The notes beneath the pieces were generated by a model that worked only from the letters and a program-made list of their open reading frames with translations, had not been told where the DNA came from and did no database searches. Positions 26,421 to 54,862 of a DNA stretch of 64,000 nt are shown piece by piece; position 1 is the first letter of the stretch; every line of letters starts with the position of its first letter. The stretch lies in assembly GCF_045037415.1 (NCBI RefSeq), contig NZ_CP173440.1; one strand, 5' to 3'. The DNA comes from Escherichia coli (GTDB lineage Bacteria > Pseudomonadota > Gammaproteobacteria > Enterobacterales > Enterobacteriaceae). The translations under genes and the position numbers were made by a program.

Positions 26421-26439
26421 ATGACTGTGAACAAGAAAA
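26421..26439 (+). pseudogene. detached first 6 codons of the rep gene
   Basis: AGGATAGGA SD plus ATG ACT GTG AAC AAG AAA A abutting the IS. Continues in frame as ...INNEIKEQ at 53299 on the minus strand. Confidence 0.7.
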
Positions 26440-26699
26440 CGGAATCTATGGTCACTCCCGTTTTTGCAACACCGATTTTGACGATAAATTGGCTTGCTTG
26501 AATCTATCCGGCGTCTGAATGGGATTTTATTCCCGCGCCTCGATGAGTTCCGCGCCTGATGAACCTCCAGAAAATATACGGCTTCAATGAGCCTTTCCGT
26601 TTTACAGGTTCCTCAACAGGCCGGTGGGCCGTTAGTATCATCAATATCAGTATTCGCAAAACCAGATCAGTGATTCTTTAAACCGGTGTATTTCTGCCG
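26440..26699 (-). ncRNA. candidate seekRNA/bridge-RNA region of copy 1
   Basis: 260-bp non-coding tail 3' of the transposase gene; see copy 2. Confidence 0.3.
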
Positions 26700-27704
26700 T
26701 TATGCTACATAAGTTTGCTGTCGTGCCGTTAGGGCCCAGGCTATTCTGGCCAGCTTGTTTGCCAGAGCACAAGTGACGACAAAGTTGCTTTTCCTACACA
26801 GTAGATCCCTGACCCAATCGGCCAATTTGCCAGACTGGTGTTCCAGTTTTTGTATGAATACCCTGGCACATTGAACCAACAAAGTTCGGATCTTTTTGTT
26901 ACCTCGCTTACTAATTCCCAGCAATGTCGTCCGACCTCCCGTGCTGTACTGTCGGGGTACCAGCCCTGTTGCCGCCGCAAAGTCACGACTGCTGGCGTAC
27001 TGCTTCCCGTCGCCAATCTCAGTTGAAATAGTACTCGCTGTCAGTGTTCCGACGCAGGGAATGCTCAGCAAGCGCTGTCCAATCTCATCTTCGTCCAACT
27101 TTCGTTTCAACTGGGATTCCAAATCTTTAATCTGCTCAACAAGATAGTGATAATGCTGTTGTAATTTCAGCAATAACTGGCTGAGGTATAGAGGCAAACT
27201 ATTGTCCTCAAGAAGGGTACTCAGTCGGCTAATAACGGCAGCTCCTCGTGGAACGCTGATGCCAAATTCCAGCAGAAAAGCATGCATCTGATTGGTTGTT
27301 TTTACCTTATCCTGAACCAGGGATTCACGGACACGATGCAGCGCACGCATTGCCTGCTGAGATTCAGTTCTGGGCTGTACAAAACGCATAGACGGACGCG
27401 ATGCAGCTTCACAAATAGCTTCGGCGTCGACAAAGTCGTTTTTGTTACTTTTAACGAATGGACGGACAAATTGTGGTGATATCAGCTTAGGAAAATGCCC
27501 CAACTCTTCCAACTTGCGTGCCATAAAGTGAGAGCCACCACAGGCTTCCATTGCGATGGTTGTAGCGGGGCATGTCGCCAAAAATTCGATTAACTTTGGC
27601 CGTGTAAATTTTTTACGGTAAACAGCCTTGCCGCGACGATCTTGGCAATGAATATGGAAAGAGTTTTTACCCAGATCGATACCAATGAGCGCAATGTTTT
27701 CCAT
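26700..27704 (-). CDS. IS110-family DEDD transposase
   Basis: 334 aa; MENIALIGIDLGKNSFHIH... N-terminal RuvC-like signature typical of IS110/IS1111. Confidence 0.92.
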   Translation of the reverse strand: MENIALIGIDLGKNSFHIHCQDRRGKAVYRKKFTRPKLIEFLATCPATTIAMEACGGSHFMARKLEELGHFPKLISPQFVRPFVKSNKNDFVDAEAICEAASRPSMRFVQPRTESQQAMRALHRVRESLVQDKVKTTNQMHAFLLEFGISVPRGAAVISRLSTLLEDNSLPLYLSQLLLKLQQHYHYLVEQIKDLESQLKRKLDEDEIGQRLLSIPCVGTLTASTISTEIGDGKQYASSRDFAAATGLVPRQYSTGGRTTLLGISKRGNKKIRTLLVQCARVFIQKLEHQSGKLADWVRDLLCRKSNFVVTCALANKLARIAWALTARQQTYVA

Positions 27705-27771
27705 GATAGTTCTCCGAATGAAAGCCTATCCTCAGCATAGTACCGGGAAGGAGGGAGTGACCATCTCATTA

Positions 27772-28023
27772 AATGTCATCAATCACTACATCAAAACCTG
27801 TGAACATCTCCGAAATGTGATCACATTCTTCAAATTGCTGAGCGGTAGGGTATAGAGCATCGGGAACCTCAAGTTCAGCCAAACATGATTTACCAGACCC
27901 GGTTTCTCCAATAATAAATACAAGAGCTTTATCTTCTGTTTGCTTGAGATATTTAGTAATGACCCCCATGTTATCCTCAAGATTTTTCATTACTAAAGCA
28001 GGTAAGTTTTTATCAAGATTCAT
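27772..28023 (-). pseudogene. N-terminal half of small P-loop protein, truncated by the IS
   Basis: Walker A IIGETGSGKS and Walker B-like FDVVIDDI, then the IS-supplied stop. The C-terminal half is at 54632..54862 on the other strand. Confidence 0.8.
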
Positions 28024-28074
28024 GTTAAACCTCTTATTAAATTTACTGTTATAGAAAAATTGACAACACGGTAT

Positions 28075-52233: not shown

Positions 52234-53299
52234 TTAAAGCTCCTCAAAATCGGCATCTTCGACTTCAGATTCCGGTTTTCCTTCCCTCTGCAACTTATCG
52301 AGGGCATCCAGAACGCCAGCAATCTCAGTTTCTGAGTAACCTGCAGCCTTCAGCATTTTAAGTTTATGTATCAGTGCATCGTCATCAGCTGGGTTATGTG
52401 CAGCCGGGACCAGGATGGTCTTTTTGGCATCCAGCGAGGGACTTCGTTTAAGTATGTGGAACTTTATTGACCGACCAATCTTCTCTTCTCTGTATTGCAA
52501 GTAACCGATTTGCTCAAGCTCCTTCAACGAACGGCGAATGATCATGTTCTGAGAGGCTACTGGGGACGTTAGCCGTAAACGGTCGCGAAAGCGTTTCATT
52601 GAGATTGGTGCGGGGTCTTTAGGTAGGCTGGCGAGGTAGGTATACAAGGCCTGGGCGGACTCTTTCCTTTGCAGGTTATCAAGAGCCTTAAGGCGAAGAT
52701 AAACCTTATAGTCAATCTGATAGAGCTCCTGAATCCGGGGATCTCCCTCTATCTCAATCTCATTGGTTTTTATGTTGTACCGTGCCCAGTTAATGAGGCC
52801 GGTCGTGAGGGTTGAATCTTCATTGCGGAACTGAAAAGTGACCATTTTCAGTTTAATCATCGAAGCATCGATACGTTGTTTCATGGGCTTATTCGACCTC
52901 GAGGGGTCAAACCCACAATTTTTAAGGAAGGTGCTAAAAGGAAGCTTAATCCTTCCTGAGTAATGGCCATGGTCATGTAAAGAACGGACTATACCAAGCC
53001 ATACACGGAAATCTGTCCCCATATCAAGACGAGGGCTGGATAGCGATATTTCTTTGTAGCCTTCACTGGATGCGATCTGCATATGCTGTAAATCGCGTGA
53101 CACATCCATCGTAACCAAACCCTCTGGGAGGTTTTTCTTTGCTACGCCCGGAGGGGCCGGGACAAATACCCCAAGCCTCAACAAAGCAACAGGTTGAACG
53201 GTACCATTGTTACCAGGGGTAAAGTTAGTAACTTTACCCGTACCCCCTACGACATTGAATGAGAATGCGGCTTGTTCTTTGATTTCATTGTTAATTTTT
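52234..53299 (-). pseudogene. iteron-type replication initiator (Rep), body of the gene; 5' end severed by the IS
   Basis: Native sequence starts ...KINNEIKEQAAF. Track ORF 52234..53385 gains 28 IS-derived codons. Winged-helix-like C-half; iterons on both (ancestral) sides. Confidence 0.7.
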
Positions 53300-53365
53300 A
53301 ATGAGATGGTCACTCCCTCCTTCCCGGTACTATGCTGAGGATAGGCTTTCATTCGGAGAACTATC

Positions 53366-54370
53366 ATGGAAAACATTGCGCTCATTGGTATCGATCTGGG
53401 TAAAAACTCTTTCCATATTCATTGCCAAGATCGTCGCGGCAAGGCTGTTTACCGTAAAAAATTTACACGGCCAAAGTTAATCGAATTTTTGGCGACATGC
53501 CCCGCTACAACCATCGCAATGGAAGCCTGTGGTGGCTCTCACTTTATGGCACGCAAGTTGGAAGAGTTGGGGCATTTTCCTAAGCTGATATCACCACAAT
53601 TTGTCCGTCCATTCGTTAAAAGTAACAAAAACGACTTTGTCGACGCCGAAGCTATTTGTGAAGCTGCATCGCGTCCGTCTATGCGTTTTGTACAGCCCAG
53701 AACTGAATCTCAGCAGGCAATGCGTGCGCTGCATCGTGTCCGTGAATCCCTGGTTCAGGATAAGGTAAAAACAACCAATCAGATGCATGCTTTTCTGCTG
53801 GAATTTGGCATCAGCGTTCCACGAGGAGCTGCCGTTATTAGCCGACTGAGTACCCTTCTTGAGGACAATAGTTTGCCTCTATACCTCAGCCAGTTATTGC
53901 TGAAATTACAACAGCATTATCACTATCTTGTTGAGCAGATTAAAGATTTGGAATCCCAGTTGAAACGAAAGTTGGACGAAGATGAGATTGGACAGCGCTT
54001 GCTGAGCATTCCCTGCGTCGGAACACTGACAGCGAGTACTATTTCAACTGAGATTGGCGACGGGAAGCAGTACGCCAGCAGTCGTGACTTTGCGGCGGCA
54101 ACAGGGCTGGTACCCCGACAGTACAGCACGGGAGGTCGGACGACATTGCTGGGAATTAGTAAGCGAGGTAACAAAAAGATCCGAACTTTGTTGGTTCAAT
54201 GTGCCAGGGTATTCATACAAAAACTGGAACACCAGTCTGGCAAATTGGCCGATTGGGTCAGGGATCTACTGTGTAGGAAAAGCAACTTTGTCGTCACTTG
54301 TGCTCTGGCAAACAAGCTGGCCAGAATAGCCTGGGCCCTAACGGCACGACAGCAAACTTATGTAGCATAA
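53366..54370 (+). CDS. IS110-family DEDD transposase
   Basis: Protein identical to 26700..27704. Confidence 0.92.
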   Translation: MENIALIGIDLGKNSFHIHCQDRRGKAVYRKKFTRPKLIEFLATCPATTIAMEACGGSHFMARKLEELGHFPKLISPQFVRPFVKSNKNDFVDAEAICEAASRPSMRFVQPRTESQQAMRALHRVRESLVQDKVKTTNQMHAFLLEFGISVPRGAAVISRLSTLLEDNSLPLYLSQLLLKLQQHYHYLVEQIKDLESQLKRKLDEDEIGQRLLSIPCVGTLTASTISTEIGDGKQYASSRDFAAATGLVPRQYSTGGRTTLLGISKRGNKKIRTLLVQCARVFIQKLEHQSGKLADWVRDLLCRKSNFVVTCALANKLARIAWALTARQQTYVA

Positions 54371-54630
54371 CGGCAGAAATACACCGGTTTAAAGAATCAC
54401 TGATCTGGTTTTGCGAATACTGATATTGATGATACTAACGGCCCACCGGCCTGTTGAGGAACCTGTAAAACGGAAAGGCTCATTGAAGCCGTATATTTTC
54501 TGGAGGTTCATCAGGCGCGGAACTCATCGAGGCGCGGGAATAAAATCCCATTCAGACGCCGGATAGATTCAAGCAAGCCAATTTATCGTCAAAATCGGTG
54601 TTGCAAAAACGGGAGTGACCATAGATTCCG
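54371..54630 (+). ncRNA. candidate seekRNA/bridge-RNA region
   Basis: 260-bp non-coding 3' tail. AAAACGGAA-AGG-CTCATT (54467-84) matches the reverse complements of both IS termini. ATTGATGA (54425-32) equals the flank of the P-loop-gene insertion site. Confidence 0.35.
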
Positions 54631-54631
54631 T

Positions 54632-54862
54632 TTTGATGCAGACAAAGTCCTGGAGTGTATTCTGGCTGTGCATGCTTCTGGCCATAAGGTTCTGGTCATC
54701 GGACAACCGTCAGACCATGAATTGTGCATTGGTTTACTTTCACGCTTGCCAGTGGGTTATCGTGCTATGTTCGTGAATCTGATGGGCCATCAAGACCTGC
54801 AAGAGATGTCTGGCGATGGCAAGGACAAGGGTAATTCGGAAACAAAAAACCTCCTACATTAG
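54632..54862 (+). pseudogene. C-terminal half of the IS-split P-loop gene
   Basis: In-frame FDADKVLECILAVHASGHKVLVIGQPSDHELC... aligns with residues about 85-143 of the paralog 54929..55360. Confidence 0.8.

Follow-up and report, generated by a model that had tools for sequence, protein, structure and literature searches.

Inverted IS4321 copies that split rep and a P-loop gene bound a 25.5-kb segment of an IncFIB/IncHI1B plasmid

How do two genes come to exchange halves across more than 25 kb of a plasmid? The question is raised by a stretch of 64,000 nucleotides, here called the window, from contig NZ_CP173440.1 of an Escherichia coli assembly (GCF_045037415.1). Its backbone is that of an IncFIB/IncHI1B pNDM-MAR-type megaplasmid of the Klebsiella pneumoniae kind, a resistance/virulence plasmid whose clinical family is well sampled. 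Two copies of the insertion sequence (IS) IS4321 lie in it in inverted orientation, and all four of their junctions are hybrid. One copy joins the 5' part of the replication initiator gene rep to the 5' part of a P-loop NTPase gene, and the other joins the two 3' parts. Comparison with related plasmids indicates that this arrangement very probably arose when IS4321 inserted twice, independently and site-specifically, and the inverted copies then underwent homologous recombination with each other, as a preliminary description of the window alone had proposed. The phenomenon is a textbook IS-mediated inversion and thus known biology, and the flipped form already stands in a public record. The inversion explains an annotated truncated RepB and two orphan P-loop fragments.

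Identity and Limits of the IS4321 Copies

A repeat search of the region detects a single long inverted repeat, whose arms span 26436-27783 and 53287-54634. Base-by-base comparison of 26436-27773 with 54634-53297 shows identity at all 1338 nucleotides (nt), and mismatches start directly outside. The repeat is a 100% match to IS4321 in hundreds of Klebsiella plasmids. Its 334-residue transposase is of the DEDD/IS110 type (PF01548, DEDD_Tnp_IS110, E 1.8e-20; PF02371, Transposase_20, E 4.5e-20) and is named IS4321 family transposase by RefSeq. The earlier claim of two identical, inverted IS110-family copies is thus borne out by the alignment that it called for.

The ends of the element are fixed by comparison with empty sites in related IncFIB/IncHI1B Klebsiella plasmids. 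These assign 1327 bp to the IS proper in each copy (Table 1). The remaining 11 identical bases belong to a target common to both sites, nine of them on the side of the 3' end of the transposase gene tnp (AAAACGGAA) and two on the tnp-5' side. Because those nine bases are target sequence, the limits first given to the copies, 26440-27770 and 53300-54630, are 5 nt off on the tnp-3' side. The ends had also been called ambiguous on account of T/A runs; the real cause is the shared 11-nt target core, and the empty sites place the ends exactly.

Read along tnp, the element has the layout TAATGAG-ATGGTCACTCCC ... GGGAGTGACCAT-AGA, in which 12-bp subterminal inverted repeats (sTIRs) are followed outward by extensions of 7 nt and 3 nt. 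A non-coding region of 255 nt (54371-54625) lies 3' of tnp. Marks of the IS1111 group include sTIRs of 11-13 bp, a left extension of 7 (or 6) bp, and a right extension of 3 bp (PMC11187229). Judged by these sequence features, both copies are IS4321, a member of the IS1111 group of the IS110 family.

Reassembly of the Split Genes

Joining 26421-26444 to 53298 down to 52234 restores a rep gene whose 362-residue product, starting MTVNKKTEKINNEIKEQ, is identical to the intact RepB of plasmid pKpvST147B_virulence (NZ_CP040726). The empty rep site in that plasmid reads AAGAAAACGGAA/AAAATTAAC, or in a longer reading ATGACTGTGAACAAGAAAACGGAA/AAAATTAAC, where the slash marks the insertion point. This intact gene identifies CGGAA, previously given to the IS, as rep sequence. 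A synthetic IS-free rep locus matches many plasmids either as two pieces with an IS-sized gap between them or as one piece with nine extra bases, the latter for example in NZ_CP040726. The claim that rep is split by both IS copies therefore stands, and the join first suggested for it (26421-26439 to 53299 downward) does not, as it is out of frame and meets stop codons. Joins that include two or five A/T bases keep the frame open; they are wrong by 9 nt relative to the intact plasmids.

The P-loop gene is restored by joining 28023 down to 27772 on the minus strand to 54626-54862 on the plus strand. The product has 162 residues, with ...DDIFRFDADKV... at the join, and aligns without gaps across the join to an intact paralog at 54929-55360 (30% identity, E 1e-20). 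Both this reassembly and the alignment with the paralog had been foreseen, with a join that left out the two codons for F-R.

The Un-inverted Isomer

The other orientation of the segment exists in pEBSI041-1 (MW245019/NZ_MW245019), a plasmid from a sequence type 11 (ST11) K. pneumoniae host from Egypt (PMC8742346). Both insertions are present there, each splitting its gene in place, and the IS copies are already inverted relative to each other. Over 28,199 nt, window positions 26436-54634 align to the reverse complement of the corresponding sequence in pEBSI041-1 without gaps and with 2 mismatches, and the flanks are collinear. When 26445-54625 is flipped in silico, the two plasmids are collinear throughout a single 42.5-kb block, in which 5 mismatches and 1 gap leave an identity of 99.986%.

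Two features within the window fit an un-inverted ancestral state. GC skew is -0.056 between the IS copies and +0.02 and +0.055 in the flanks, the sign changing exactly at both IS copies. The seven iterons (TTAACNGTCGTAYG) are split by strand, three plus-strand copies upstream of rep and four minus-strand copies downstream; none of 100 shuffles reached 8 matches. Flipping the segment back co-orients all seven, as the preliminary description held. It had also predicted that un-inversion would yield one co-directional block of the ParB-like operon, both P-loop genes, and the cas operon. The annotation of pEBSI041-1 agrees, since the genes from rep to umuC lie on one strand except for one small open reading frame.

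Distribution of States among Public Plasmids

If the two insertions preceded the inversion, each intermediate state might be met in related plasmids. The record counts given here are PLSDB plasmids, a collection from which the window itself is absent. The empty P-loop site (120 nt) matches many plasmids as a single 100% piece and is covered to at least 80% in 339 records, and the empty rep site is present in 163. Simple insertions, in which IS4321 interrupts a gene still in place, number 62 records for rep and 148 for the P-loop gene. One plasmid, pKpvST147B_virulence, combines an intact rep with an IS4321 insertion in the P-loop gene. Overlap of the site matches gives at least nine records, pEBSI041-1 included, that carry both simple insertions without inversion. 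Each flipped junction is found in one record, NZ_CP117741, and in none of the E. coli complete genomes. All the states required by two insertions followed by recombination are therefore represented in public plasmids. An IS-free relative with the gene order of the window and with rep and the P-loop gene intact, which the preliminary description had named as contrary evidence, is absent from the 163 and 339 empty-site records.

The nearest PLSDB records to the window are MW245019, in the other orientation, and CP117741, in the same orientation with different IS content. NZ_CP117741 lacks the ISCfr12 element of the window and has an extra ISKpn26 at a position matching window ~32360. CP091814, as judged from the spacing of its site matches, is un-inverted and also without ISCfr12. 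Plasmids with and without ISCfr12 thus exist in both orientations (pEBSI041-1, the window, CP117741, and CP091814), and the flip has probably happened more than once or else reverted.

Other records show further IS4321 activity on this backbone. An IS4321 insertion into a pNDM-MAR-type plasmid arose within one patient (PMC9676029). In NZ_CP117746, from a sibling isolate, the halves of the rep site are ~39 kb apart, each abutting a directly oriented IS4321 (regions 100500-109000 and 138000-148000). A Tn3-family transposase gene (ISPa38-type) opens the intervening block, and recombination between IS4321 copies seems to have produced the arrangement, as an insertion or a cointegrate. Given the in-patient insertion and these direct copies, IS4321 is active and recombinogenic on the pNDM-MAR-type backbone. 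In CP154635.1 to CP154639.1 the two flanks of the rep site, and likewise those of the P-loop site, are only about 170-400 nt apart, as against 1327 nt; the IS copies in these assemblies were probably collapsed or are incomplete.

Target Sites and a Candidate seekRNA

What brought IS4321 to two genes in opposite orientations? Read along tnp, the rep target is TTAATTTT/TTCCGTTTTCTTG, the P-loop target is GACATT/TTCCGTTTTGATG, and the terminal repeat of the Tn21 family, the classical target of IS4321 and IS5075, is TTTATT/TTCCGTTTTCTGAG. TT/TTCCGTTTT is common to all three, and toward this core the IS faces the same way in each. No target duplication is evident at either site: the empty rep site has six T before CCG and the occupied flanks have four plus two, and the empty P-loop site has four T and the occupied flanks have two plus two. 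The exact 11-mer target is expected ~0.03 times per 64 kb, and no intact exact copy is left in the 64-kb window. By sequence, the insertions are site- and orientation-specific at the canonical IS4321 core. The IS pair is inverted because rep and the P-loop gene are co-directional and yet carry the core on opposite strands.

The non-coding region 3' of tnp contains two candidate guide segments of a seekRNA. The first, AAAACGGAAA (54467-54476), is complementary to the top strand of the target, and the second, TATTTTC(TG) (54494-54502), which begins ~20 nt further on, matches the top strand. This order, a complement of the target top strand lying 5' of a complement of the bottom strand, is the one reported for seekRNAs of IS1111-type elements (PMC11187229). 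The predicted fold puts the two segments opposite one another in an internal loop, on either side of a small hairpin, and its stability does not exceed that of shuffled sequences (z = -0.7). Rfam, searched with the IS, yielded no relevant family of bridge or seek RNAs. The guide matches suggest that both insertions may have been directed by a seekRNA. The window offers a clean natural example of IS4321 using look-alike targets within genes, in agreement with the seekRNA model of target choice.

Proposed Mechanism of Inversion

In a first step, IS4321 would have inserted twice, independently, at mimics of the terminal inverted repeat of the Tn21 family. One insertion lies after codon 8 of rep and the other after codon 84 of the P-loop gene upstream of a type IV-A CRISPR-Cas operon. 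In a second step, a crossover somewhere within the identical 1327-bp copies would have flipped 25,527 bp, presumably in a manner dependent on host RecA. As a result, 25.5 kb now lies between the three upstream iterons with the start of rep on one side and the remainder of rep with its four downstream iterons on the other, and about 40 genes run opposite to those around them.

Three points weigh against this history. As the copies are identical, the crossover point cannot be mapped, which makes homologous recombination indistinguishable from another exchange within or at the same IS ends. The perfect 1.3-kb inverted repeat exceeds the length of short reads, so that the orientation seen in any one assembly could stem from a misassembly or be that of the commoner form in a mixed population. 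Finally, the RecA dependence of the flip is, like the order of the two insertions, something that we infer. There are three rival explanations.

The first is that the plasmid is mostly or partly un-inverted and that an assembler took a wrong or arbitrary path through the repeat. A perfect repeat of 1338 nt is indeed unspannable by short reads, and the flipped orientation has just one other public record to set beside the nine or more un-inverted plasmids with both insertions. An artifact or mixed population is nevertheless unlikely. The same orientation recurs in two assemblies of differing IS content, one with ISCfr12 (the window) and one with ISKpn26 and no ISCfr12 (CP117741), both are complete, circular-plasmid-grade sequences, and an inversion between such repeats is expected in a RecA+ host.

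A second explanation assigns the flip to the element rather than to host recombination. The DEDD recombinase of IS4321 with its seekRNA would have exchanged equivalent IS-target junctions in an RNA-guided inversion. Its relatives Piv and the IS621 bridge recombinase can catalyze inversions, and the two pairs of junctions have their core and their guide-matching bases in common. The natural pairing of a left end with a right end, however, predicts abutted IS ends together with a hybrid empty site; these are not seen, and the left-end by left-end exchange that is required instead is not a known reaction. With an identical 1.3-kb repeat sufficient for RecA, the chance that the recombinase made this inversion appears very small.

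Least credible of all is a single step in which IS4321 in rep attacked the P-loop target by IS26-like replicative intramolecular transposition, giving the second inverted copy and the inversion together: its product would have exactly the structure of the window, but IS1111/IS110 elements move via excised circles by conservative site-specific recombination without cointegrates (PMC11187229), the un-inverted form with both insertions, through which this route does not pass, is common and differs very little from the window, and a P-loop insertion with intact rep also exists.

Two insertions followed by homologous recombination between the copies thus remains the strongly favored history of the features collected in Table 1.

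Table 1. Positions of the IS4321 copies, the split genes, and associated features in the window
Feature	Position	Strand	Details	Basis
Three iterons and promoter/Shine-Dalgarno region upstream of rep	26286..26408	+	TTAACNGTCGTAYG at 26286, 26351, 26395	
rep 5' fragment, 8 codons	26421..26444	+	MTVNKKTE; ends in right half of IS4321 target (TTCCGTTTT on other strand)	Intact rep of NZ_CP040726
IS4321 copy 1, 1327 bp	26445..27771	-	tnp 26700-27704 (-); 12-bp sTIRs 26448-26459 and 27753-27764; non-coding region 26445-26699	
P-loop NTPase gene, 5' part, 84 codons	27772..28023	-	Walker A GETGSGKS; ends ...VIDDI	Empty site, Pfam, paralog alignment
Inverted segment, 25,527 bp	27772..53298	.	About 40 small genes, each now minus-strand	Comparison with pEBSI041-1, GC skew
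ISCfr12 (ISL3 family), within the inverted segment	49835..51152	-	Shared with pEBSI041-1; missing in NZ_CP117741	
Four iterons downstream of rep	51775..52042	-	At 51775, 51917, 51980, 52029	
rep 3' part, codons 9-362 and stop	52234..53298	-	Rep3_N/Rep3_C initiator	Comparison with intact rep, Pfam
IS4321 copy 2, 1327 bp	53299..54625	+	tnp 53366-54370 (+); TAATGAG, sTIR 53306-53317, sTIR 54611-54622, AGA	
Candidate seekRNA guide segments, non-coding region	54467..54502	+	Copy 1 equivalent at 26568-26603 (-)	Sequence match
P-loop NTPase gene, 3' part, 78 codons and stop	54626..54862	+	Starts FRFDADKV	Empty site, paralog alignment
Intact P-loop paralog	54929..55360	+	Yardstick for reassembly	Pfam, alignment

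Consequences for the RepB Replicon and the Plasmid

The product of rep is a Rep3 initiator (PF01051, 25.3 bits against a cutoff of 22.4) with the RefSeq name RepB family initiator, and the locus as a whole is a predicted iteron-type Rep3/RepB replicon. A query with the empty rep site matches 411 records, 163 of them in a single piece and most of the others as separate halves, which indicates that two-replicon plasmids of this kind can do without the RepB (IncFIB-type) replicon. Replication is presumably from the IncHI1B replicon, with rep already broken by the insertion.

RefSeq starts the truncated rep at a GTG within the left IS end of copy 2 (53313, minus strand), giving M-T-I-S-L-K-INNEIKEQ..., with AAGGAGG before it. 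The IS thereby supplies an in-frame start and a sequence like that of a Shine-Dalgarno site, and the predicted Rep lacks only its first 8 residues.

It is doubtful that the 25.5-kb segment bounded by IS4321 is a recurrent, reversible invertible element with a possible effect on the plasmid. If it were, its orientation could uncouple the P-loop and type IV-A CRISPR-Cas block from read-through of the upstream co-directional array, or could separate the iteron clusters of a crippled RepB replicon, altering copy control or incompatibility. The IS4321 copies will mislead replicon typing of pNDM-MAR-type IncFIB/IncHI1B plasmids as well as comparisons of their synteny. No account of this specific inversion was met in searches of the literature.

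Neighboring Loci

A type IV-A CRISPR-Cas locus occupies 55423-61430, and its cas operon lies directly downstream of both the P-loop gene that IS4321 split and the paralog of that gene. Its genes encode, in order, a 263-residue protein without a family match, a 190-residue protein (Cas6/CasE-type in RefSeq), a DinG/Csf4 helicase, a 235-residue protein, and Csf2/Cas7. The CRISPR array, in which GTATTCCCCCCGYRTGCGGGGGTTATCGG recurs ~16 times with a period of 61 nt, differs between the window, CP117741, and pEBSI041-1. Just past it lies ltrA, for a group II intron reverse transcriptase/maturase (62101-63588; TIGR04416, E 1.6e-112), and in related records ltrA is followed by umuDC.

Within the inverted segment, a 413-residue protein (29775-31016, minus strand) has an acidic low-complexity center and ParB-reminiscent N-terminal motifs, IIPGFNTR and QGHCRHRA. 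Sequence searches of Pfam, NCBIfam, and PDB gave no match, and the label ParB-like that it first received reduces to a motif-level resemblance.

Outside the segment, the window at ~7300-10100 (by correspondence with NZ_CP117741 84317-87024) has a DNA cytosine methyltransferase gene beside a type II restriction endonuclease gene. A RelE/ParE toxin gene lies further along, as does a second methyltransferase (a site-specific DNA-methyltransferase, window ~19300-20500). The plasmid backbone is rich in defense and addiction genes.

Comparison with Known Systems

The arrangement in the window shares its defining features with inversions between copies of IS26, IS1, or rrn known from plasmids and chromosomes, namely identical inverted repeats, reciprocal hybrid junctions, and the presence of both isomers in near-identical replicons. 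There is no essential difference from these cases, and the crossover in the window is unmappable simply because the copies are identical. The intramolecular trans transposition of IS26 likewise yields an inverted segment bounded by inverted IS copies, each splitting different genes. That route produces 8-bp target duplications in inverted orientation and can do without an un-inverted intermediate with both insertions, whereas the window has no duplication and the un-inverted intermediate is abundant.

As an element, the IS of the window agrees with IS4321 of the IS1111 group in its length of 1327 bp, its DEDD transposase, its 12-bp sTIRs with 7- and 3-nt extensions, its long non-coding region 3' of tnp, the lack of target duplication, and its single orientation relative to the core TTTTCCGTTTT, the center of the Tn21 inverted repeat. 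Its sites are another matter. The usual target of IS4321 is a transposon end, whereas those in the window are look-alikes within coding genes (codons 6-10 of rep and 84-87 of the P-loop gene) that have only 12-13 nt in common with the Tn21 inverted repeat.

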